Shown here piece after piece: positions 10,282 through 54,854 of a DNA stretch of 64,000 nt (its first letter is position 1; every line of letters starts with the position of its first letter). The position numbers and the translations under genes are program-made. The notes under the pieces were generated by a model that saw only the letters and a list, made by a program, of their open reading frames with translations, was not told the DNA's origin and did not search any database. The stretch comes from Thermoanaerobaculia bacterium (GTDB lineage Bacteria > Acidobacteriota > Thermoanaerobaculia > Multivoradales > UBA5704), in NCBI GenBank assembly GCA_036402955.1, contig DASWRX010000022.1, positions 1,442 to 65,441 on the forward strand. The letters run 5' to 3'.

Positions 10282-21449
<11,168 letters not shown>

Positions 21450-21453
<4 letters not shown>

Positions 21454-24400
21454 CCGGCCGTCACGGCCTCCCGCGCGGCCAGCCGCCGCAACTCGGCTAG
21501 GTGCTGGAGACTGTCCATCACCGAGGGGACGTCCACCCCGAAGTCGAGCAGGCAGCCGACCTCGTCCACCCCGATCTCGCGCAGGCGGTGGACCATGGCG
21601 AGGCAGCTCTCGGGCGTCCCCAGCAGCGAGCCGCTCTGGAAGTAGCGCTCGAACTCCATCATCAGCAGCTCCTCCAGATCCTCCTTGGAGAAGCTCTCCT
21701 CGTCGAAGCTCTGGTGGAGGCTGCGGGCGAGCGAGGTGAGCAGCTCGGTGTGCGAGCGCAGGTAGTCGCAGAAGGGGGCGCGCACCGTCTCCTTGACCCG
21801 CGCGAGATCGTCGCCCACGAAGGTGTGGAGCATCACCGCCACCTGTCCCGACTTCGGATCGTGGCCGGCCCTGGCGCGGCTGTCGCGGTAGAGGGCGATC
21901 CGCTGGGCGAGGACCTCGGGGCTGAGCCCGATCAGCGAGGTGAGGACGTTGGCGCCGATCCGCCCCGTATCCTCGAAGGTCTGCGGATTGTTGGCGCAGG
22001 TCACCCAGACCGGCACCTCGGGCTGCACCGGCCTGGGGAAGAGCTCGACCTGGATCTCGTTGCCGGCGCCGCCGCGCACGGTGATCCTCTCCCCCCGCCA
22101 GAGGCGGCGGACGGTCTCGATGCGTTCGAACATCACCTCGCGCCGGTTGGCGTAGACGTCGGGGAAGAAGGCGAAGTCGTTGGGGTGGAACCCGGAGGCG
22201 AAGGCGAGCCCCACCCGCCCGCGCGAGAGGTTGTCGACGATCGACCACTCCTCGGCCACCCGGATCGGGTCGTGGAGGGGAAGCACGACACTGCCGGCGC
22301 GGATGTGGAGGCGCTCGGTGACCATGGCGAGGCCGGCGCTCAGCACCGAGGGGTTGGGGTAGAGGCCGCCGAAGCTGTGGAAGTGGCGCTCCGGGGTCCA
22401 GATGGCGGTGAAGCCGTTGCGGTCGGCGAACTTCGCCCCCTCGACGATGAGCTGGTATTTGTACTCCGGGAACATCGCCTCGTTGCCGGAGAAGAAGAAC
22501 AGGCTGAAGCGCAGGCCGCTCTCCTTCCCGCCGCCCGGACGGACGGCCGCCGGCGCGGGCGCGGCCGGAACGACCGGAACGGTGGGCGGCGTGGCGGCGG
22601 GGACCGCCGCCCGCACCTCCTCCAGGATGCGGGCGCGGGCGGTGAGCGCCTCGAGCCCCGGCTGGCGCTCGGCCACGATGCGGGCGAGGCCGCCGACCGT
22701 CGGGCTCTCGAAGAAGGAGCGCACCGAGAGCTTGACGCCGAACACCGACTGGATGCGCGAGATGGCCTGGAGGGCGATCAGCGAGTTGCCGTTGAGGCGG
22801 AAGAAGTTGTCCTCCACCCCCACGCGCTCGATCCCCAGCAGGGTCTGCCAGAGGTCGGCCAGGATCTCCTCGACCTCGTTGCGCGGGGCCACGTAGCCGC
22901 CCGGCGCGGCCTTCGAGTCGTAGCGGCTGTCGACGTAGGAGAGGGCTGGAGCGGCGATCGGCGGCGCGGCCTCGGCGGCCAGCGCCAGCGGCGCCGCGGT
23001 CTCGGCGCGCGGGGCCACGGCGGGGCCCGCGGTTCCCGCCAGCTTCTCGAAGTCGATCCAGTGGCGCTGCCGCTGGAAGGGATAGGTGGGGAGCGGCACG
23101 CGCCGGCGCCGACGGCCGTTGTGGAAGGCGCTCCAGTCCACCTCCACCCCCGCCACCCAGAGGCCGCCGAGGGCCTGTAGCAGGGTGTCGAAGGGATCGC
23201 GCGGGTCCTTGGGGTGGGGGAGGCACGGGAGGCACGGCAGCACCACCTGGCCGGCTGTGCGCGCCGCGCGCGCCGGATGCTGCCGCGCCGCGCCGGAGAG
23301 CGCCTGCGCCGGTCCGACCTCCAGGAGCGCCGCCCCGGGCCGGGCGAGCAGGGCGCCGATCCCTTCGGCCAGCCGCACTGTGCGGCGGAGCTGGCGGCTC
23401 CAGTAGCCGGGATCGGTGGCCTCGGCGGGGGTGATCCAGCCGCCGGTGACGTTGGAGACGAAGGGGATGCGCGGCGGTGAGAGCCTCACCTTCCGCACCT
23501 CCTCCCGGAACGGCTCCATGACGGGATCCATCATCGGTGAATGGAAGGCGTGGGAGGTGTGGAGCGTGCGGCTCTCGACCTCGCGCCCGGCGAGGAGGGC
23601 CGTCAGCCGCTCGATCTCGTCCGGCGGGCCGGCGACCACGCACATCTCGGGCCCGTGGACCGTCGAGAGGGCGAGGTTGCCGCCGAGCAGCGGCGCGACC
23701 TCCGCCTCGGAGAGGGGGATCGCCAGCATGTCTCCCTTGGGGCACGCGCCCATCAGCCGGCCGCGGGCCGCCACCAGCCGCGCCGCGTCTTCCAGCGAGA
23801 AGACCCCGGCCACGCAGGCCGCCACCAGCTCGCCCAGGCTGTGGCCCAGCAGGGCCTTCGGCTGCACCCCCCAGCTCATCCAGAGCCGCGCCAGCGCCCA
23901 CTCGACGGCGAACAGGGCCGGCTGGGCGACCTCGGTCCGCTCCAGCCGGGCGGCGAGATCCGCCGGGTCCAGACCGCCCGCGAGAGCGGGGTCCACGAAG
24001 GTCCGCACGTCGATCCCGGCGTGCTCCTGGAACAGCGCGGCGCAGCGGTCGAGCTCGGCGCGGAAGGTCTCCTCGCCCCGGTAGAGCTCCCGCGCCATGC
24101 CGGGGTGCTGCGCGCCCTGGCCGGGGAAGAGGAAGCAGACCGTGCGGTTGCCGCCGTCGTGGACGCCGGTGGTCACCCGGGGGGCGTCGAGAGCCGTGAG
24201 GGCCGCCCGCGCGTCCTCCGTCCCGCACGCCGTGACGGCCCGCCGGTGCTCGAAGGGCCGGCGGCCCACCTGCAGAGTGAACGCGACGTCGGCGAGGTCG
24301 GTGCCCGGGCGCTCGGCGAGGAAGCCCGCGAGGTCGCGGGTGGCGGCGTCGAGCGCAGAGGCGTCGCGGGCGGAGAGGACCAGGAGCTGCCAGGGCCGGT

Positions 24401-25745
24401 CCGGATCGGTGGGCGCGGGCACGGGCGCCTCCTCCAGCACCACGTGGGCGTTGGTGCCGCCGAAGCCGAACGAGCTGACGCCGGCCCGCCGCGGCCCCTC
24501 CGGCCAGGGGGCGAGGTCGGGGTTGACGAAGAACGGGCTGGCCGCGAAGTCGATCTGCGGATTGGGCCGCTCGAAGTGGAGGCTCGGCGGGATCTCCCCG
24601 CGCTCGACCGCCAGCGCCGCCTTGATCAGCCCGGCGATCCCCGCCGCCACCTCCAGGTGGCCGAGATTCGTCTTCACCGAGCCGACGGCGCAGAACCCCC
24701 GGCGCGAGGAGGTGCGGCGGAAGGCCTTGGTGAGCGCCGCGATCTCCACCGGATCGCCGAGGGCGGTCGCGGTGCCGTGGGCCTCGACGTAGCCGATCGA
24801 GTCGGCGTCCACGCCGGCGTTGGCGAGCGCCTCGGAGATCACCTCCGCCTGGCCGGCCACGCTGGGGGCGGTGAAGCCGGCCTTGGTGGCGCCGTCGTTG
24901 TTGACCGCCGAGCCCTTGAGCACGGCGTGGATCGTGTCGCCGCCGGCGAGCGCGTCCTCCAGCCGCTTGAGCACCACGACGCCGGCGCCGCAGCCGAAGA
25001 CGGTGCCGGCGGCGCGGGCGTCGAAGGCCCGGCAGTGCCCGTCGGGCGAGAGGACCCCCCCCTCCTGGTAGACGTAGCCGCTCTTCATCGGCACCGTCAG
25101 CGACACGGCGCCGGCGAGCGCCATGTCGGTCTCCCCCGCGATCAGCCCCTGGGCCGCCATGTGGACGGCGACCAGCGAGGTGGAGCAGGCGGTCTGCACG
25201 GTGACGGCGGGGCCGCGCAGGTCGAGCTTGTAGGCGACGCGCGGCGCCAGCGAGTCCTTGTCGTTGCCCACCGCCAGCATCGTGGTGTCGACGCCGATCG
25301 CCTGCAGCCGGTCGCGCAACGGATCGAGCGCCAGCAGGTAGCTCGACAGGGTGACGCCGCCATAGACGCCGATCACCCCGGGGGACCGTGACGGGTCGTA
25401 GCCGGCCCGCTCCAGCGCCTCCCACGCGCACTCGAGGAAGAGGCGCTGCTGGGGGTCCATCACCTCCGCCTCGCGGGGGGAGTAGCCGAAGAAGCCGGCG
25501 TCGAAGAGCTCGATCCCCTCCAGCGCGGCGTGGGCGGGGACGTAGCCGGGAGCCTCGTAGACCGCCGGCGGGATGCCCGCCGCCCGCAGCTCCTCGGCGG
25601 AGAAGAAGGAGACCGATTCGACCCCGTTGCGCAGGTTGCGCCAGAATCGCTCGGGGTCCGCCGCGCCGGGGAAGCGACAGGCGAGGCCCACGATGGCGAC
25701 GTCGGTCGGGGATCCAGTGGAGGAGGGGGTCTCGTCGCGGCTCAT
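21450..25745 (-). CDS. Type I polyketide synthase module KS-AT-carrier protein fused to a C-terminal luciferase-like (FMN-dependent) monooxygenase domain
   Basis: Real part of track ORF 21450..26573, from Met277 (MSRDETPSS...). The ATG at 25745 overlaps the upstream TGA (ATGA). KS motifs TACSTSLVA, EAHGTAT, NLGH. AT motifs GHSLGE and HAFHS. Carrier motif FFRLNGNSLIAL. LLM domain begins GLRFSLFFFSGNEAMFPEYKYQLIVEGAKFADRNGFTAIWTPERHF... and is contiguous to the stop. Confidence 0.9.
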
Positions 25746-28700
25746 GGGCGCGTCCTCTTGAGGCTGGTCCGGCGGTCCCTCCGGAGCTCGCCCCGGCTCG
25801 ACCGCGCTTCGAACGGATCGGCCCGCTCCCCGCCGGTGTCCTCCGCCACGAAGCGGGCGATGGCATCCACCGTGGGGTGCTCGTACAGACTGAAGGTGCG
25901 TCCGTCCAGGTCGAAACGTGCCTGGACTGCGTGGACCACCTGGAGGCCGACCAGTGAGTCCCCCCCGAGCTCCAGAAAGTTGTCGAGGGCGCCGATCCGC
26001 TCGATGCCGAGGGCCCGGCTCCAGATCTCGGCGACCGCCCGCTCGGTCTCGTCCCGGGGAGCGACATAGGGATTGCGGAGGAGGGGCCGGTCGTGGATCG
26101 CCTGGAGCGCGGCCGGGGAGGGGAGAGCGGGAAGCCGTTCCTCGACGCTCTCCGGAGCCTCCGGATGGTCTCCCCCGGACCGCCGCGCCGCCGTCACTCC
26201 TTTCGCGAGGAGGAGGTCGGCTGCCGGGCCGATCCCGTCCTCGCTCTCCCACAGCAGGGCCAGGATGCCGGTCCGGCGCTCCGCCAGGGCCGCGAGATAG
26301 CGGAAGGTGGGGGGATCGGCCGTATGGAGGACGGCAGAGAGGGGGGTCCGCTCCGGCTCGCGGAGCGTCCGTGCCTCGGCGAGGTCGCGGACGAAGAGGA
26401 CCTTCGTTCCTTCCACCCGCTCCGCGGGCCGGCGGGCCACGAGCAGGGCGGAGTCCCCAGCTCCCGAGCAGGCCTGAGGCTCGGCGAAGCCGCAGCGGGC
26501 GAGCAGCCCCTCCCAGGCCTCGGGACCGAGCAGCGGCGAACCCCGCCGCAGCTCCCCGTCCTCGAAGCTCCACCAGCCGTCGGTCAATCCCCAGACCAGG
26601 GTCCCCCAGCGCTGGGGATGGACGGTCTCGACCAGGCCCAGCAGGCCGCCGGGGGCGAGCAGCGAGCGCAGGTTCGCCAGGGTCTCCGCCAGGCGCGGCG
26701 TGGCATGGACCACGTCGGCCCCGATCACGGCGTCGAAGGTTCCCGGCGCGAACCCCTGCGACGCCGGATCGCGGGTGACGTCCAGCATCCCGAAACGGAG
26801 GAAGCCCTGGCCGGCCTCCCGCGCCCGCCGCTCGGCGCGCAGCACGAAGGCGCGGCCGACGTCCGTGAAGTGGTACTCGACCTCCCGTCCATTGAGGGCG
26901 GGGAGCAGCTCCGCCGTCAGCGTCCCCTGGCCGGCGCCGATCTCCAGGATTCTATAGGGCGGGTCATTCGACGGCCGCTCCCGGACCGCGGCGGCCAGCA
27001 CCTCGCGCAGCAGGCGGGCGGCGGCGTTCGGCCCCTCTCCCTGCCGGGAGAACAGCTCGGAGCTCCCGTCGGGATAGAGCACCGCGAGCCCCGGCACCTC
27101 GCCGGAGAGGGCCGCGGGGTAGTGATGGCCGCAGTGGTCGATCAGGTCATAGAGCGGGCCGAAGCCGGGGAAGCGCGTCTCCAGGGCCCGGCGGGTCTCG
27201 GCGGGGAACGGAGCCGCGGCCATGGCGGGGAGGAACCGGACGGCGTCCCCGTCCACCTCGGCCAAGCCGTCCTCTCGCAGTACGCCAAGAAGGAAGTCCA
27301 GGAGGCGCTCGTACTTCGGGAGCAGCCGGAGGCGGCGGCGCAGCTCGGGAAGGGGGATGGCGGGCCCTTGCGGGAGGCCGTCCCGAAAATACTCGACGGC
27401 GTGGCTCGTCACCAGCGGATCGGTCGCCTCGGCCATCTGCGAGGCGGGCTCCGCGGAAGATTCCGCCGCGATCTCCCGGGCCATCCGCCCGATCTCGGCG
27501 GCGTCCGGCCCGGTCTCCTGGCGGCCGGGCGCGGGGGCCACGTTTTCCCAGGTCTCGCGCCAGCGCTTGCCGCCGCGGTGGGCGATCACCGTTCCGGCCT
27601 CGAAGGGGGCGGCGATCTCGGCCAGGACGCGGGCGGTCCACCGGCGCGCCTCCGGGCCCTCCAGAACTGGGGGCGGCTCCACGTCCAACCCGCGCCCGGG
27701 GATGCCCAGGGCCGCGCAGACTCCCAGCAGAGCCGCGCGCTCGGGGTCGGCGTCCGCTCCCGAGGTGATCACGTCCACCTTCACCGCAAGAGGTCTGCCG
27801 CGGAGGGCCGCGGCGAGCGCGTCGAGACCCCGCGCCGCCGCATGGACGATCCGCAGCGGCCGGCCCTCCTCCATGCCCTCCAGGACCGCGGCCAGCAGCG
27901 CCGCGAAATCCTCCGCCCGCCCGGGATCGACGGTGAAGGCGCCGGCCGACAGCCGCGAGAACCCCGCGCCGGGGACCGCGACGACCGGCTCCAGCCGTTC
28001 CGCCTGGAGGCCCTGGACGATCAGGGAGCCCATCCCTCCCTCCTCGATGACGGCCAGCCAGACCGCGCCCTCCCCCCGCAGGTCGTCTTGCGAGGAGACC
28101 GGGAGCGTCTGCCGCCAGAGCGGCGTCTGGAGGACAGGGCCGGTCGTCCCGGCCGTTTCCGGCTGGGATTGAATCCAGTAACGCCGCCGCTCGAAGGGAT
28201 AGGTCGGGAGAGAGACCTTCCGCCCCGGCGTGCCCACCGCGCTCCAGTCCACCTCCACACCCGCCAGCCAGAGCCGGCCCAGGGCTTCGAGCAGGCTCTC
28301 CCGCGCGGCGGTGGGCGCTGCCGGATGGGGGAGTGAGGGGACCGCCTCCCCCCCGTGCCGGCGGACCAGCGAGGCGAGCGTCCGCCCCGGACCCACCTCC
28401 AGCAGCACCCGCCGCCGGTCGGCCAGCAGCTCGGCCACGGCGGGCGAGAAGCGCACGGTCCGCCGCAGCGATTTTCCCCAGGTGGCGGGGTCCATCGCCT
28501 GCTCGATGGTGATCCAGCCGCCGGTGAGGTTCGACAGCCAGGGGATCTCCGGCGCGCCGGGCCGGGTCCGCCGCACCGCGTCCACGAAGGCGTCCAGGAT
28601 CGGCTCCAGGCTGCGCGAGTGGAACGCCCGGCGCACCGGCAGCGGGCGCGCGTCGATCCCCCGCGCCGCCAGCCTCTCTCGGAGCCGCCCGACCGCCTCG

Positions 28701-42485: not shown

Positions 42486-43859
42486 ATGTACCGCCGCATC
42501 ATGGTCCTCGCCACCCTGGTCCTCGCCTCCCTGACGGCCACGCCGCCGTCCTGGGCCGCCACCGTCAACGTCGTGGCGGGTGGGGCTGCGGGCCTGGTCT
42601 TCACCCCGCACGAGGTCCACGTTCATCCCGGCGACACGGTGATCTGGACGAACGGCGGCGGTCTTCACAGCGTCACCGCGGACGACGGGAGCTTCGGCAA
42701 CACGGCGGACACCTCGGCCTGGACCGTCTCTCATACCTTCTCCACGGTCGGCACCGTGGGCTATCACTGCGAGGAGCACGGCTCCCCGGGCCACGGCATG
42801 TTCGGCACCGTCGTCGTCGAGGACGCCGGTGGTGGTGGCGGCAGCCATCCGGGGACGCTCGGCTTCAGCCTGGCCAACTTCTCGGTCAACGAGGGAGCGG
42901 GCACGGCCACCCTCGCCGTCCAGCGCACCGGCGGCGCGGACGGGGCGGTCTCCGTCGCGTATGCCGCCACGGCCGGCACCGCCACCGCGGGACAGGACTT
43001 CACCTCCGCGAGCGGCACCCTGTCCTGGGCCGACCAGGACGGCTCGACCAAGACGTTCACCGTGACGGTGATCAATGACACGAACCCCGAGCCCACCGAG
43101 ACGGTCCTGCTGGCGCTGTCGAACCCCACCGGCGGCGCGGTCCTGGACGCCGCTCACAAGAACGCCACGCTGAGCATCCAGGACAACGACTCGGGCGGCG
43201 GTGGCGGCGGTCCGGTGAAGGCGCCCTCCAATCTGCAGGCGGTGGCGCACTCGACCAGCGAGATCGACCTCACCTGGACCGACAACTCGACCAACGAGAC
43301 CGGTTTCTCGGTCGAGCGCCGGACGGTCGGCGGCACCTACGAGGTGGTCGCCACCGTGAGCGCCAACACCACGAGCGCTCCGGTGTCCGGGCTCGATCCG
43401 GCCTCCTTCTCCCTGTTCCGCGTCCGCGCGACGGGCTCCAGCAGCAGCAACTTCTCCCCGTACTCCGCGGAGATCGCGGCGGCGACCCTGGCCGATCCCG
43501 GCGCCTGCGTCGCCGGGGCCAACGCCCTGTGCCTGAACAACGGCCGTTTCAAGGCCACGATCGACTTCCACGCCACCACCAGCGACGGCCACGGCTCCGC
43601 CGTGCCGCTCCCCGCGGCCCCGGACTCCGGCCTGTTCTACTTCTTCAACCCCACCAACATCGAGATGCTGATCAAGGTGCTCAACGCCTGCGTGGCTCCG
43701 TTCAACCACTACTGGGTCTTCTTCGCGGCGACCACCAACGTCGAGTTCGACGTCGTCGTCACCGACACCCAGACGGGCAAGACCAAGACCTACTACAACC
43801 CGCTCAACCAGGCCGCCGCGCCGATTCAGGACATCAATGCGTTCGCGACCTGCCCGTAG
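42486..43859 (+). CDS. Secreted mosaic protein: cupredoxin (type-1 Cu) - Calx-beta - fibronectin type III - unassigned Cys-bounded C-terminal domain
   Basis: Track ORF 42432..43859. Start at Met19 (ATG at 42486), behind AAGGAGGAG. Signal peptide MYRRIMVLATLVLASLTATPPSWA. Cu-ligand context LHSV...GYHCEEHGSPGHGMFG. Calx-beta segment FSVNEGAGTATLAVQRTGGADGAVSVAYAT...DFT...TVTVINDTNPEPTE. FN3 segment PSNLQAVAHSTSEIDLTWTDNSTNETGFSVERR. Confidence 0.8.
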   Translation: MYRRIMVLATLVLASLTATPPSWAATVNVVAGGAAGLVFTPHEVHVHPGDTVIWTNGGGLHSVTADDGSFGNTADTSAWTVSHTFSTVGTVGYHCEEHGSPGHGMFGTVVVEDAGGGGGSHPGTLGFSLANFSVNEGAGTATLAVQRTGGADGAVSVAYAATAGTATAGQDFTSASGTLSWADQDGSTKTFTVTVINDTNPEPTETVLLALSNPTGGAVLDAAHKNATLSIQDNDSGGGGGGPVKAPSNLQAVAHSTSEIDLTWTDNSTNETGFSVERRTVGGTYEVVATVSANTTSAPVSGLDPASFSLFRVRATGSSSSNFSPYSAEIAAATLADPGACVAGANALCLNNGRFKATIDFHATTSDGHGSAVPLPAAPDSGLFYFFNPTNIEMLIKVLNACVAPFNHYWVFFAATTNVEFDVVVTDTQTGKTKTYYNPLNQAAAPIQDINAFATCP

Positions 43860-49168: not shown

Positions 49169-49744
49169 ATGGCCTGGATCCGCACCGTCGCCCCAGGGGA
49201 GGCCCAGGGTCTCCTCAAGCGCCTCTACGACGAAGCCGTCGCGCGGGCGGGACGGGTGTTCAACGTCCTGCGGATCCAGAGCCTCCGTCCGGAGGTGCTC
49301 GAGGCGGGCGTCAGGCTCTACGAGGAGCTGATGATCTCGCCGCGCAGCCCCCTGAGCCGGGCGCAGCGGGAGATGATCGCCGTCGCCGTCTCCCGCGCCA
49401 ACGGCTGTCACTACTGAACCGACGCCCACGCGGACGACCTCCGGGCCGAGGTCGCGGGACAGGGAGAGCGGGGCGAGGCGCTGATCGCCGCCCTGCGCGG
49501 TGCCGGCCGGGAGGAGGACCCGTCTCCGCTCTCCGCGGCTGACCGGACGATGCTCGACTTCGCCGTCAAGCTCGCCCGCGAGCCCCGCTCCGTCCGCCGC
49601 GACGACGTCGAGGCCCTCCGCGCCGCCGGCTTCGACGACACCGCCATCCACGACATCGTCCAGATCGCGGGCTTCTTCTCCTACTACAACCGGCTTACCG
49701 ACGGGCTCGGAATCGATCCCGAGCCTCCCACCTCCGGACGCTGA
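49169..49744 (+). CDS. AhpD/carboxymuconolactone-decarboxylase-fold peroxidase-related protein with in-frame TGA (49415-49417); candidate selenoprotein, 191 aa
   Basis: Track ORFs 49169..49417 and 49550..49744 share one frame, and the 44 codons between them have no stop. Read-through gives ...AVAVSRANGCHY[TGA]TDAHADDL..., so the TGA occupies the second Cys of the fold's C-x-x-C-x-x-x-H motif. Confidence 0.7.
49435..49454 (+). promoter_or_regulatory. SECIS-like hairpin 17 nt downstream of the in-frame UGA
   Basis: CGACCTC (49435-49441), loop CGGGCC, then GAGGTCG (49448-49454). This is a perfect 7-bp stem with a G-containing apical loop about 26-28 nt after the UGA. Confidence 0.45.
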
Positions 49745-49869: not shown

Positions 49870-51519
49870 ATGATGCCCGTCTCGCTTCACTCCGCAGGCT
49901 CGCGCGTGCTGCTCTCCGCCCTGGCTCTGGCCCTCGCCGTCGCCCCTGGGACTTTCGGGAAGGCGCCTCCCCGGTTCGCCTCCGGCGAGACGGTCAACGT
50001 CGAGGTCAAGATCGTTCCGTTCTACGCCGTCGACGCCGACGGCCGGGCCGTCACCGATCTGCGGCGCGACGAGATCGAGCTGCGGGTGGGCGGCGCCCCG
50101 GTGCCGGTCGAGTCGTTCGACCGCTACGCGAGCGCTCCCGGCGCCGCCGGCGCGCCGGCCGCATCGCCGTCATCGCCGCCGTCGCCGGCGGCCCCGATCC
50201 CCTCCCGCAACGTGTTTTTCCTGTTCGACACGGTCTTCTCGTCCGCCGCCGCCTTCCATACGGACAAGACGCTGGCCGCCCGGATGCTGGCGAGCTGGCC
50301 CGCCGGGGACCATGTATCCCTGCTCGTCAACGGCAGCGCCGGGATGGAGAGCCGGCTGGGTCCGGTCGCGGCCGCAGGCGAGGGCAAGAGGCGGTTGCTC
50401 GCCGCCATCGAGGACCTGAACCCGGAGGTCCGGCGCGTCGGCATGCAGTACGCGCCGGAGGAGGATTTCGGTCCCAACGGCGAGCGGGCGAGCCGCGCCG
50501 GCCGCATCGTCGGCGGCTTCGGAATTCCCCAGGAGCAGGTCCACGCCGCCTGGGACGGCTTGCAGGGGAACGCGCGCGGCGAGTACATGAACATCGCGAA
50601 GAGCTACGCGAGCTCGCTCGGGGCGCTCGCCGCCGAGCTGCGGGGCCTCCCCGGTCCCAAGGTGCTGGCGATCTTCTCCCAGGGCCTGAACTACCTTCCT
50701 TATTTCGAGGGTGACAACGGGACCAGCCTCGGCCTCGACGATTCCGTCCTGGTGGACACGCGGCGCTCGGCGCCGCTGCTGGACCGCTTCCGGGTGCCGA
50801 TGGCCGCCCTCGCCGAGTCGGGCACGATGTCCATGTTCGTCAACACCCAGCGTTTCGGGCCCGACGCCGACGCTCCCCTGCGCGACATGGCGAAGAACGC
50901 CGGCGGTCTCTACTTCACCGGCGACGACGCCGGCGAGTTGGGAACGCGCATCGCCGGCTCGACCGCGGCCTATTACGAGGCGGGCTTCCGTCCGTCGGGT
51001 CCGGCGCTGGCCGCCTCCCACGCCAGCGTGGAGGTGGTCGTCCGCCGGCCGGGAGTGCGGGCCTGGGCGCCCGCCAGCGTGCGGATGTGGGAGCCGTACC
51101 GCGAGCTGAGCGTCGTCGAGAAGCGGCAGATGGTGGTCGATCTGGTGGTCGGCGGTCCCGGGTCCCAGAGCGCCCACTCGCCGGTGCGGCTGAAGCTGCA
51201 GGAGCTCGGCGGCAAGGTGGTGGGCCAGGCGGCGTCCGGGCATCCCCGGCTCAAGTTGGAGGCGGCATGGCCGGCGAGCTCCGCGAATCGCAAGCTGGAC
51301 TTCTACAACGTCCTGCTGGCCCCTCCCGGCAACGGCCAGAAGGGTCAGGTCCTCGCCTTCGATCATCGGGAAGGGACGGCGGCCGACCGCCCGGATCTGG
51401 AGGCGACGCTGGACGGCGAGGGCGCGCGGGTCTGGGGCATCCTCGCCGTTGATCCCGAGACCGAGCAGGCGTGGGTCCGCCGGCTGATGCTGCGGGCGCC
51501 GGGCAGGGGATCGAAGTAA
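49870..51519 (+). CDS. Secreted VWA-related (Acidobacterial VWFA-type) protein, paralog 1
   Basis: Track ORF 49756..51519. ATG at 49870 after AAGGGAGGG. Signal peptide MMPVSLHSAGSRVLLSALALALAVAPGTFG. N-terminal beta-sandwich-like ETVNVEVKIVPFYAVDADGRAVTDLRRDEIELRVGG. VWA beta1 strand NVFFLFDTVFSS. Confidence 0.8.
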   Translation: MMPVSLHSAGSRVLLSALALALAVAPGTFGKAPPRFASGETVNVEVKIVPFYAVDADGRAVTDLRRDEIELRVGGAPVPVESFDRYASAPGAAGAPAASPSSPPSPAAPIPSRNVFFLFDTVFSSAAAFHTDKTLAARMLASWPAGDHVSLLVNGSAGMESRLGPVAAAGEGKRRLLAAIEDLNPEVRRVGMQYAPEEDFGPNGERASRAGRIVGGFGIPQEQVHAAWDGLQGNARGEYMNIAKSYASSLGALAAELRGLPGPKVLAIFSQGLNYLPYFEGDNGTSLGLDDSVLVDTRRSAPLLDRFRVPMAALAESGTMSMFVNTQRFGPDADAPLRDMAKNAGGLYFTGDDAGELGTRIAGSTAAYYEAGFRPSGPALAASHASVEVVVRRPGVRAWAPASVRMWEPYRELSVVEKRQMVVDLVVGGPGSQSAHSPVRLKLQELGGKVVGQAASGHPRLKLEAAWPASSANRKLDFYNVLLAPPGNGQKGQVLAFDHREGTAADRPDLEATLDGEGARVWGILAVDPETEQAWVRRLMLRAPGRGSK

Positions 51520-51571: not shown

Positions 51572-53236
51572 ATGCCCGTCTCGCTTCACAGACTCAGCAT
51601 CATCAGCATCAAAGGATCGCGCGCGCTGCTCTCCGTCCTGGCTCTGGCTCTCGTAGCCCCTGGAGCTTTCGGGAAGACGCCTCCGGCGGCGCCCCCGCGG
51701 TTTGCCTCCGGCGAGACCGTCAACGTCGAGGTCAAGATCGTCCCGTTCTATGCCGTCGACGCCAAGGGCCGGGCCGTCACCGATCTGCGGCGCGACGAGA
51801 TCGAGCTGCGGGTGGGGGGCGCCGCGGTGCCGGTCGAATCGTTCGACCGCTACGTGATCTCGCCCGGGGTCGCCGGCGCGGCCGCATCGCCGTCCTCGTC
51901 GGCGGCGCCGATCCCCTCGCGCAACGTGTTCCTCCTGTTCGACACCGCCTTCTCGTCCGCCGCCGGCTTCAACACGGACAAGAAGCTGGCCGCCCGGATG
52001 CTGGCGACCTGGCCCGCCGGGGACCGCCTGTCCCTGATCGTCAACGGCACCTCCGGGATGGAGAGCCGGCTGGGTCCGGTCGCGGCTGAGGGCGAGGGCA
52101 AGCGGCAGCTCCTCGCCGCCATCGAGGATCTGAAGCCGGAGGTGCGGCGCATCGGGCTGCAGAACCACCCACAGGATGATTTCGGTCCCAACGGCGAGCG
52201 GGCGAGCCGCGCCGGCGGCGTCATCGACGGCGCCGGTATGCCCCAGGAGCAGATCCACGCCGCCTGGGACGGCCTGCGGGGGAGCGCGCGCGGCGAGTAC
52301 ATCGACGTCGCGAAGAGCTTCGCGAGCTCGCTCGGCACCCTCGCCGCCGCGCTGCGCGGCATCCCCGGTCCCAAGCTGCTGGTGATCTTCTCCCAGGGCA
52401 TGGACGACACCCTCTATTTCATCGGGGACGACGGAGTCAGGGTCGGCACCGACGAGTCCATCCTGGTGGACACGCGGCGCGCGCCGCCGCTGGTGGACCA
52501 ATTCCGGGCGCCGATGGCCGCCCTCGCCGAGTCGGGCGCGATGTCCATGTTCGTCAATACCCAGCGCTTCGAGGCGATGGACGCCGACGCTCCCCTGCGC
52601 GACATGGCGAAGACCGCCGGCGGCCTCTACTTCGTCGGCAACGACGCTGGGGAGCTGGGAACGCGCATCGCCGGCTCGACCGCGGCCTACTACGAGGCGG
52701 GCTTCCGTCCGTCGGGTCCGGCGCTCGCCGCCTCCCGCGCCAACGTGGAGGTGGTCGTCCGCCGGCCGGGAGTGCGGGCCTGGGCGCCCGCCAGGGTGCG
52801 GATGTGGGAGCCCTACCGCGAGCTGAGCGTCGCCGAGAAGCGGCAGATGGTGGTCGATCTGGTGGTCGGCGGTCCCGGGTCCCAGAGCGCCCACTCGCCG
52901 GTACGGCTGAAGCTGCAGGAGCTCGGCGGCAAGGTGGTCGGCCAGGCGGCGTCCGGGCACCCCCGGCTCAAGTTCGAGGCGGCGTGGCCGGCGAGCCTCG
53001 CCAACCGCAAGCTGGACTTCTACAACGTCCTGCTGGCCCCTCCCGGCAACGGCCAGAAGGGTCAGGTCCTCGCCTTCGATCATCGGGAAGGGACGGCGGC
53101 CGACCGCCCGGACCTCGAGGCGACCCTGGACGGCGAGGGCGCGCGGGTCTGGGGCATCCTCGCCGTCGATCCCGAGACCGAGCAGGCGTGGGTCCGCCGG
53201 CTGATGCTGCGGGCGCCGGGAAAGGGGGCGAAGTAA
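51572..53236 (+). CDS. Secreted VWA-related protein, paralog 2
   Basis: 554 aa with the same architecture (ETVNVEVKIVPFYAVDAKGRAVTDLRRDEIELRVGG; NVFLLFDTAFSS). The last 163 codons are near-identical to paralog 1. Confidence 0.8.
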   Translation: MPVSLHRLSIISIKGSRALLSVLALALVAPGAFGKTPPAAPPRFASGETVNVEVKIVPFYAVDAKGRAVTDLRRDEIELRVGGAAVPVESFDRYVISPGVAGAAASPSSSAAPIPSRNVFLLFDTAFSSAAGFNTDKKLAARMLATWPAGDRLSLIVNGTSGMESRLGPVAAEGEGKRQLLAAIEDLKPEVRRIGLQNHPQDDFGPNGERASRAGGVIDGAGMPQEQIHAAWDGLRGSARGEYIDVAKSFASSLGTLAAALRGIPGPKLLVIFSQGMDDTLYFIGDDGVRVGTDESILVDTRRAPPLVDQFRAPMAALAESGAMSMFVNTQRFEAMDADAPLRDMAKTAGGLYFVGNDAGELGTRIAGSTAAYYEAGFRPSGPALAASRANVEVVVRRPGVRAWAPARVRMWEPYRELSVAEKRQMVVDLVVGGPGSQSAHSPVRLKLQELGGKVVGQAASGHPRLKFEAAWPASLANRKLDFYNVLLAPPGNGQKGQVLAFDHREGTAADRPDLEATLDGEGARVWGILAVDPETEQAWVRRLMLRAPGKGAK

Positions 53237-53237
53237 G

Positions 53238-54854
53238 ATGCCGGTCTCGCCTCCCATCGTAGGCTCGCGCGCGCTGGTCGCCGCCCTGGCCGTGGCCGCC
53301 CTCGCTCTCCCGGGGGCCTTCGGGCAGGACCGCCCGGCGCCGGCTCCCCGGTTCAACGCCGGGGAGACGGTCGACGTCGAGGTCAAGATCGTCCCCTTCT
53401 ACGCCGTCGACGCCAAGGGGAACCCCGTCTACGACCTCAAGCCCGGCGAGGTCGAGCTGCGCGTGGGCGGCGCTCCCATTGCGATCGAGTCCTTCGATTC
53501 GTACGTCATCCCGTCCGGACCCGCCGGCGCCCAGGCGTCGCCGCTGACGCCGACGCCGTCGCGCACCGTGTTCTTCCTGTTCGACACGACCTTCTCTTCG
53601 CCGGCCGGCTTCAAGACGGACAAGCGGCTCGCCGCCCGGCTGGTCGAGGGCTGGCCCGGCGGCGACCGGCTGTTCCTGATCCTCCACGGCACCCGCGCCG
53701 GTCTGGAGCGGAAGCTGGGGCCGGTGCCGCCGGACGCCCAGGGGAAGAAGGAGCTGCTCGCCGCCATCGAGGCCCTCAGGCCGGAGACGCGGCGCGTCGA
53801 GCTGCAGGACGACCCCACCGTCGACTTCAGCCCTCCCGCCGGCAAGGCGAGCCGCACGGACACCGGCGCGCCGGACAGCCAGATGGCCCACGCCTACAAC
53901 AACATCCAGGGAGCGGTGCGCGGCGAGTACCACAGCGTGGCGCGGGATCTCGCCAGCTCGCTCGGGGATTTCGCCAGCGAGTTGCGGCGCATCTCCGGGC
54001 CCAAGCTGCTGGTGCTCTTCTCGCAGGGCATGAATGACGAGCTCTACTTCCAGGGGGACAGCGGCTTCAAGGTCGGCAGCGACGAGAGCGTCGAGGTCGA
54101 CACCCGGCGCGCGCCGCCGCTGGTGGACCGCTTCCGGGAGCCGCTCGCCGCGCTCGCCGAGTCGGGCACGGCGACCCTGTTCGTCAACACGGACCGGGAT
54201 CTGGAGAACGACGGCGACGGGGTGCTCCGCAACATGGCGCAGACCACGGGCGGCCTCTACGTCGAGGGGAAGGACCCGCGGGATCTCGAGAAGCGCATCG
54301 CCGGCTCCACCGCGGCCTACTACGAGGCGGGCTTCCATCCCGCCGGCGACCTGCTCCAGAAGACCCGCGCCGGCGTGGAAGTCGTGATCCGGCGGCCCGG
54401 AGTGCGGGCCTGGGCGCCCGCCGCGGTGCAGACGCGGGAGTCCTACCGCAGCCTGAGCGATTTCGAGAAGCGGCGGATGGTGATCGATCTCGTCGCCGGC
54501 GGCGCCGCGGCCCAGCACGCCCACAGCTCGGCGAAGCTGGGGCTCCAGAGCCTCACCGGCAAGACGGTGGGAATCGGCAAGAACGGGCGGCCCGTGCTGC
54601 GGTTCGAAGCGGCCTGGCCGGGGGGCCTCGCCGCCCGCAAGCTCGACCTCTACAACGTGGTGCTCGCGCTGCCCACGAAGGAGACCAAGGGCAAGATCCT
54701 CCAGTTCGAGAAGCGCGAGGGGATCGCCGCCGTCGACCAGGAGCTGCTCGAGACGCCCCTGCAGAAGCAGTTCGCCCAGACCTGGGGGATCGTCGCCGTC
54801 GATCCCGACACCGAGCAGCTCTGGCTCTGCCGGTTGCTGATCCAGCCCCCGTAG
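53238..54854 (+). CDS. Secreted VWA-related protein, paralog 3 (more diverged)
   Basis: 538 aa. Its ATG lies 1 nt after the TAA of paralog 2. ETVDVEVKIVPFYAVDAKGNPVYDLKPGEVELRVGG; TVFFLFDTTFSS. Confidence 0.8.
   Translation: MPVSPPIVGSRALVAALAVAALALPGAFGQDRPAPAPRFNAGETVDVEVKIVPFYAVDAKGNPVYDLKPGEVELRVGGAPIAIESFDSYVIPSGPAGAQASPLTPTPSRTVFFLFDTTFSSPAGFKTDKRLAARLVEGWPGGDRLFLILHGTRAGLERKLGPVPPDAQGKKELLAAIEALRPETRRVELQDDPTVDFSPPAGKASRTDTGAPDSQMAHAYNNIQGAVRGEYHSVARDLASSLGDFASELRRISGPKLLVLFSQGMNDELYFQGDSGFKVGSDESVEVDTRRAPPLVDRFREPLAALAESGTATLFVNTDRDLENDGDGVLRNMAQTTGGLYVEGKDPRDLEKRIAGSTAAYYEAGFHPAGDLLQKTRAGVEVVIRRPGVRAWAPAAVQTRESYRSLSDFEKRRMVIDLVAGGAAAQHAHSSAKLGLQSLTGKTVGIGKNGRPVLRFEAAWPGGLAARKLDLYNVVLALPTKETKGKILQFEKREGIAAVDQELLETPLQKQFAQTWGIVAVDPDTEQLWLCRLLIQPP

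Follow-up and report, generated by a model that had tools for sequence, protein, structure and literature searches.

The stretch of DNA analysed here, called the window throughout, comprises 64,000 nucleotides (64 kb) of contig DASWRX010000022.1 from the Thermoanaerobaculia bacterium assembly GCA_036402955.1, and the gene under study occupies positions 49169-49744 on its plus strand. Direct reading of the window gives a frame that opens at ATG 49169 (+), closes at TGA 49742-49744 and contains a single internal TGA at 49415-49417. Public gene calls present this locus as two open reading frames (ORFs). The first, at 49169-49417, encodes 82 aa and ends in ...SRANGCHY immediately before the TGA; the second, at 49550-49744, encodes 64 aa, lies in the same frame, starts 381 nt past the start of the first and is separated from it by 44 stop-free codons. 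Read through, the frame consists of 191 codons plus the TGA stop, the internal TGA is codon 83 and the surrounding peptide is C80-H-Y-[TGA]-T-D-A-H87. Beginning 17 nt past the internal TGA lies a perfect 7-bp hairpin, CGACCTC/CGGGCC/GAGGTCG, at 49435-49454. A preliminary description of this DNA had reported the split frame and the interrupted motif and had proposed a selenoprotein gene missed by ORF calling; the sizes, the 381-nt offset, the shared frame and the 44 open codons were all reproduced on the window, the motif around 49415-49417 reads as described there, and public gene callers do split or mistranslate the gene. From the comparisons of sequences presented here, we conclude that 49169-49744 very probably constitutes one gene for a 191-residue AhpD-like (TIGR01926) thiol/selenol oxidoreductase in which UGA codon 83 is read as selenocysteine (Sec).

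Profile scans were run on the 191-residue product with Cys substituted for the TGA. The NCBIfam model TIGR01926, "peroxidase-related enzyme", scores 142.4 bits (cutoff 81.8, E=1.2e-41) and aligns residues 2-186 with model positions 1-177 of 178, the Pfam carboxymuconolactone decarboxylase (CMD) domain PF02627 matches at E=1.8e-14, and the AhpD core-domain model TIGR00778 is passed with 50.2 bits (cutoff 27.8). The product falls below the cutoffs of the canonical ahpD model TIGR00777 (27.8 bits, cutoff 191.95) and of the equivalog model NF041238 AhpD_rel_CFYUT (63.5 bits, cutoff 175), the window having C-H-Y-U-T and not C-F-Y-U-T. Full-length relatives in the PDB are 2pfx, 3c1l (Mlr4105), 2oyo, 2prr and the AhpD structure 6k40 (E = 5.5e-25 to 1.2e-17), of which 2pfx and 3c1l match at E~1e-24; the first four are structural-genomics entries labelled as uncharacterized peroxidase-related proteins. 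Together these matches bear out the earlier assignment to the AhpD/CMD family. All five structures are Cys forms whose C-[FY]-Y-C-x-x-A-H aligns with C-H-Y-U-T-D-A-H of the window, and their second Cys falls in the TGA column of these alignments; the Cys-form loci described below give the same column identity, which confirms that the TGA replaces the second Cys of CxxCxxxH, as had been proposed. The active-site segment at 49370-49429 (+) contains E68 (49370-49372), C80 (49406-49408), Y82, U83 and H87 (49427-49429). By sequence comparison only, this spacing is identical to that of both five-residue proton relays described for AhpD-like proteins, E36/C48/Y50/C51/H55 in PA0269 and E118/C130/H132/C133/H137 in M. 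tuberculosis AhpD (PMC3141380). A gamma-carboxymuconolactone decarboxylase proper was considered and ruled out, given that only the generic Pfam CMD domain was matched and that the CxxC/U...H relay, which marks the AhpD-like branch and not gamma-CMD (PMC3141380), is present.

The closest relatives returned by a protein-database search (61-88% identity) are half-length fragments: three N-terminal fragments end in ...CHY or ...CDY, and seven C-terminal fragments begin with V/M-EAHADDLRAEV, just past the TGA position. Remoter relatives (40-50% identity) are full length and have Cys at that position. Using an alignment of the C-terminal halves as the query, we fetched 141 related loci from species-representative genomes and metagenomes. 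The aligned column in 133 related loci is TGA in 77, TGC in 52 and TGT in 4, a recurrence of TGA at one position that chance comes nowhere near explaining. The TGA forms belong to Thermoanaerobaculia and other Acidobacteriota, Vicinamibacterales, Holophagales, Polyangiaceae, Gaiellaceae and Gemmataceae, and the closest of them, with 70-78% identity over the C-terminal half, come from Thermoanaerobaculia and other Acidobacteriota. In all 77 TGA loci the frame remains open for at least 83 codons beyond the TGA, and the median pairwise ratio of non-synonymous to synonymous substitution rates (dN/dS, 1146 pairs) is 0.44 upstream and 0.41 downstream of it, which shows purifying selection on both sides.

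These data bear directly on the possibility that a nonsense mutation killed a Cys-type AhpD-like gene and that the frame downstream is decaying. Such a pseudogene would have required only one mutation from TGC or TGT, and gene callers do take TGA as a stop, but decay does not account for a TGA found in 77 loci across several phyla, each with an open downstream frame, nor for a dN/dS downstream of the TGA that equals the one upstream. In addition, the sole strain difference is synonymous, synteny is conserved and a check of the gene found no further disabling mutations. The open frames and equal dN/dS effectively refute a pseudogene, which we consider highly improbable. The same data leave very little probability for two separate small proteins of 82 and 64 aa with termination at the UGA. 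Public gene calls annotate the locus in this way, and some termination at a Sec UGA is normal for selenoprotein mRNAs; however, the 44 intervening codons are equally conserved and include the catalytic His87, the TIGR01926 alignment runs unbroken over residues 2-186, and a product ending after 82 aa would be without the second redox residue and without half of the fold.

A sequencing or assembly error, with TGC or TGT as the true codon, would need just one wrong base. The locus was recovered in one ENA and two JGI assemblies, and both assemblies that span the site, ENA ERZ27256986 and JGI 3300041409 (L003 and L004), have TGA there, not TGC or TGT. They come from separate projects, and each has a single synonymous difference from the window, which lies beyond the TGA at position 540 of the gene. 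With 76 further TGA loci in addition, the probability of an error at this codon is negligible.

Reassignment of the genetic code, with UGA as a sense codon for Trp or Gly, might seem to be favored by two database orthologues, the JGI proteins P0002 and P0005, both of which have Trp at the Sec column. The DNA behind P0002 (L001:104-682) reads TGA, however, and its Trp is a mistranslation by the gene caller. Of 18 neighbouring genes, 9 end in TGA, as does the gene itself, and no other coding frame of the 64 kb is convincingly interrupted by TGA. Reassignment is refuted by this stop-codon usage, and we give it practically no weight. Given that the true terminator at 49742-49744 (+) is likewise TGA, any recoding of UGA would be site-specific. 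Selenoproteins of this family thus sit in databases disguised as 'W' variants or as split fragments. In one full-length relative (L002:753-1292, Logan SRR22392798) the Sec column reads GGA (Gly), a codon that differs from TGA by a single base, and the hairpin GACCTCCGTGCCGAGGTC and an HDLRAEV peptide are retained; either Sec has recently given way to Gly or the base is a read error.

The hairpin downstream of the TGA consists of a stem of 49435-49441 paired with 49448-49454 and an apical loop CGGGCC at 49442-49447, which starts 24 nt past the TGA. It overlaps codons D89-D90-L91-R92-A93-E94-V95-A96 and is the proposed core of a bacterial selenocysteine insertion sequence (bSECIS; 49435-49454, +). 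For an analysis of synonymous sites we took 54 Sec-form genes selected by peptide only, with pairwise identities of 32-94%. The six hairpin codons have the lowest synonymous diversity among 93 windows of the gene. For Leu91 all 54 genes have CTC, and at the 13 other conserved Leu columns CTG occurs 6-33 times per column; the codon of Arg92 is either CGG or CGT, with no CGC (0/54), and other Arg columns have CGC 11-37 times each. Val95 never uses GTG and Ala93 never uses GCG in these 54 Sec forms. The residue following Arg92 is variable (A, V, D, E or G), yet the first base of its codon is always G.

Pairing in the helix is 97.3% and drops to 21-48% once the 3' arm is shifted by 1-3 columns. 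Compensatory changes occur at two of the seven pairs, 21-40 (CG 44, GC 7, UA 1) and 24-37 (CG 49, UA 2, UG 2), and the observed covariation score was reached by none of 500 shuffles. These changes alter amino acids on both arms, as with Asp GAT paired with a Val-to-Ile ATC, and they co-occur in a way that preserves base pairing. In these comparisons the downstream hairpin behaves as an RNA element under nucleotide-level selection.

Published criteria for bSECIS elements are a loop of 3-9 nt, a stem of 4-16 bp, G in the first two loop positions, usually followed by G/U, a spacing of 16-37 nt from UGA to loop and a minimum free energy of at most -7.5 kcal/mol (PMC13188914). The hairpin of the window, with its 6-nt loop CGGGCC, 7 bp, 24-nt spacing and -10.5 kcal/mol, lies within all of these limits. 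The generic rules are also passed by 11 of 56 Cys forms, so that taken alone they are weak evidence. The specific hairpin motif is more discriminating, being present in 60 of 78 Sec forms and in none of 56 Cys forms. Across the family the loop C-G-[G/U]-G-N-N reproduces the consensus G[G|U], and the hairpin sequence GACCUC-CGKGNN-GAGGUC is nearly unchanged in the copies of Gaiellales and Polyangiaceae. The TGA loci of Gemmataceae/Planctomycetota (L044, L045, L047, L048, L053, L055, L058 and L061) have the motif C-F-Y-U-[T/K/L]-E-S-H and no GACCUC hairpin; instead, a longer stem CGAGUUC...GAACUCG surrounds an inner hairpin, apparently another type of SECIS in the wider family.

In Gaiellaceae metagenome-assembled genomes (MAGs), TGA-form genes lie beside the machinery for Sec decoding. 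ARAGORN found ten tRNAs in all fetched loci, and seven of these are tRNA-Sec (anticodon TCA), each 3-7 kb from a TGA-form gene in a Gaiellaceae MAG. With E. coli SelA, SelB and SelD sequences that served as bait only, tblastn located selA and selB 1-4 kb downstream of the orthologue and on the opposite strand in nine Gaiellaceae loci (L049, L052, L054, L056, L057, L062, L063, L064 and L066), in seven of which tRNA-Sec lies 3-7 kb upstream. The Gaiellaceae orthologue is thus placed between tRNA-Sec and selB-selA. Both sel genes of L057 were validated with profile models, selA by TIGR00474 (521 bits, cutoff 268) and selB by TIGR00475 (364 bits, cutoff 242). The ORFs around the tRNA-Sec upstream of the orthologue in L056 include no sel genes. 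Across all fetched DNA the SelA and SelB baits matched Gaiellaceae loci alone, and the SelD bait matched nothing.

Several results weigh against selenocysteine at codon 83. Most pairs of the stem are invariant, so that the covariation rests on two of the seven, and the hairpin encodes the conserved DLRAEV peptide, such that part of its conservation could be at the protein level. With a z-score of -0.47 its fold energy does not stand out, the folds of the somewhat more GC-rich Cys-form homologues equal or exceed those of Sec forms in stability, and no SECIS or other relevant Rfam family was found at the gathering threshold in the whole window or at E<=10 in 49350-49550. Finally, neither the 64-kb window nor the Acidobacteriota flanks, about 600 kb in total, yielded tRNA-Sec, selA, selB or selD in searches that used the same E. 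coli protein baits; no tRNA gene of any kind lies within the window. Hairpin thermodynamics were rejected as evidence for a SECIS, Cys forms being at least equally stable. The earlier claim of a SECIS-like hairpin stands insofar as the perfect 7-bp hairpin exists at 49435-49454 and behaves as a selected RNA element, but its perfection is no evidence in itself: a hairpin alone is unremarkable in 69%-GC DNA, and support for a SECIS therefore comes from the comparative data.

The failure to find Sec machinery in the window or the Acidobacteriota flanks would also fit a read-through of the UGA by a suppressor tRNA other than tRNA-Sec, an allo-tRNA or a SelC*-type tRNA-Cys, which would insert Cys, Ser or another residue, with the hairpin as a SelB-independent recoding signal. 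Acidobacteria are reported to have tRNA-Sec-like allo-tRNAs that may serve as nonsense suppressors, and other phyla to have opal suppressors of the SelC* tRNA-Cys type (PMC5389517). Against this, a near-identical hairpin and motif occur in Gaiellaceae orthologues beside tRNA-Sec, selB and selA, the loop fits the SelB-type consensus G[G/U], and Acidobacteria are documented users of selenoproteins (PMC1794560). No suppressor tRNA was found in any flank, where 7 of the 10 tRNAs are tRNA-Sec. Because the same hairpin and motif adjoin tRNA-Sec, selB and selA in another phylum, Sec is the parsimonious reading, and we consider a suppressor tRNA unlikely.

The proposal that the UGA encodes selenocysteine in a 191-aa redox protein is upheld by the column of 77 TGA against 56 TGC or TGT codons, by the dN/dS values on either side of it and by the codon constraint in the hairpin, all of which point to Sec at the level of sequence. 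We infer the capacity of the window's own organism to decode Sec. When a protein database was queried with the validated Gaiellaceae SelA, all hits were Gaiellaceae-like orthologues, and a literature search gave nothing relevant on selenocysteine in Thermoanaerobaculia. A second selenoprotein candidate was found on an Acidobacteriota contig (RFGL01000113.1, Acidobacteria bacterium J023; L024:1-526, +), about 10 kb from an AhpD-like Sec gene. It has a TGA at 172-174, belongs to the AhpC/TSA family (PF00578, 108 bits, over a match that extends across the TGA), has the motif W-U-P-F-C and corresponds to the known 'Prx-like, UxxC' family. Its 7-bp hairpin GCAGCUC-GGC-GAGCUGC begins 14 nt past the UGA, and the loop begins 21 nt past it. 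Together with the documented use of selenoproteins by Acidobacteria, this candidate lends indirect support to Sec decoding in the lineage of the window.

By analogy with described bacterial systems, we infer Sec insertion itself, SelB binding and the physiological substrate. SelB carrying Sec-tRNA(Sec) would bind the mRNA hairpin at 49435-49454, with its loop C-G-G/U-G-N-N 24 nt past the UGA, and, competing with release factor 2, would deliver Sec to the A site of the ribosome. The terminal UGA, without such a hairpin, would be read as a stop. In the protein, Sec83 and Cys80 would cycle between the selenol/thiol and the selenenylsulfide state, aided by the Glu68/Tyr82/His87 relay of the AhpD family. 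The likely role, again by analogy, is the reduction of a peroxiredoxin-type partner or of peroxide. The place of the Gaiellaceae orthologue between tRNA-Sec and selB-selA makes it conceivable that the protein serves selenium handling itself rather than peroxide defence.

The selenoprotein family to which the gene belongs has been known since 2005. An analysis of the Sargasso Sea introduced the "AhpD-like protein" with a CxxU motif (COG2128) as a new selenoprotein family, with 27 sequences (PMC1088965), data from the GOS contained 299 "AhpD-like 1" and 70 "AhpD-like 2" sequences (PMC2398784), and the family is present in sequenced genomes (PMC1794560). A 2026 review has the entry "AhpD-like protein | TIGR01926 | CxxU" (PMC13188914), and the family can be browsed in BSepDB (PMC13326102). 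At the level of sequence, the gene in the window agrees with this family in every respect by which it is recognised: it shares the NCBIfam model, a CxxU motif with Sec in place of the second Cys, Cys homologues that are widespread and, directly past the UGA, a bSECIS with G in a small apical loop. It differs in origin, in that the family was defined from marine metagenomes whereas the copy in the window is from an uncultured soil acidobacterium (Thermoanaerobaculia-like).

Compared with M. tuberculosis AhpD, an adaptor that reduces AhpC, the product shares the C-x-x-C-x-x-x-H helix hairpin and an upstream Glu at identical spacing (PMC3141380), but it has Sec for the second Cys and, as in PA0269, Tyr for His132. 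It also scores below the TIGR00777 cutoff, and no ahpC lies within 10 kb. The NF041238 family AhpD_rel_CFYUT likewise comprises CMD-fold CxxU selenoproteins, and its C-F-Y-U-T motif is seen in the Planctomycete relatives found here; it differs in being longer (a model of 357 positions) and in having another, longer hairpin. With the E. coli fdhF-type SECIS and the bSECIS consensus the hairpin shares its location within the coding region, a loop 16-37 nt past the UGA, a small loop opening with G then G/U and a stem no shorter than 4 bp (PMC13188914), although it has no primary-sequence similarity to the fdhF-type element and no Rfam match.

The locus thus adds a hitherto unannotated gene to a well-known selenoprotein family; it is an annotation correction and not a discovery, and it opens no new biological question, given that family, motif and mechanism are already established. 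Its value lies in annotation. This gene and dozens of orthologues in MAGs of soil Acidobacteriota, Gaiellales, Planctomycetota and Myxococcota are stored split in two or with a false catalytic Trp, and their misfiling as fragments or Trp variants leads to an underestimate of how widely abundant uncultured soil bacteria use selenium. The gene is also a clean case of a coding-region SECIS that fixes both codon choice and peptide, with the DLRAEV peptide bound to the hairpin.

The AhpD-like gene is flanked by genes for PLD-like, EEP and unknown secreted proteins and for zinc alcohol dehydrogenases (ADHs), and the order DUF5777-EEP-PLD-PLD-[AhpD-like gene]-unknown-ADH-ADH is conserved; the PLD-like and ADH neighbours share about 90% identity with their counterparts in Acidobacteriota MAGs. 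No ahpC or AhpC-TSA gene is among the Pfam-annotated genes within +/-10 kb. A scan of the full 64 kb gave no convincing other coding frame interrupted by TGA. In-frame TGAs at 25955 (+) and 43156 (-) passed a filter for coding-like GC content at third codon positions (GC3), and neither has a redox motif; the former lies opposite long minus-strand ORFs and the latter antisense to a called Calx-beta gene (42486-43859, +), and both are probably shadow frames.

On the minus strand, an ORF listed with 5261 aa (10282-26067) contains an AMP-binding adenylation domain (PF00501, 260 bits) and may be a megasynthase similar to nonribosomal peptide synthetases (NRPS-like). It may also be over-extended, because the first ~1550 residues of the tested stretch have no Pfam match. 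Directly downstream of the AhpD-like gene are three tandem paralogues on the plus strand, at 49873-51519, 51572-53236 and 53238-54854 (548, 554 and 538 aa). None has a Pfam match; each begins with MPVS... and continues into a hydrophobic stretch resembling a signal peptide, and identity between the second and third is 59%. In three of the related loci (L007, L008 and L015), one single region matches all three.

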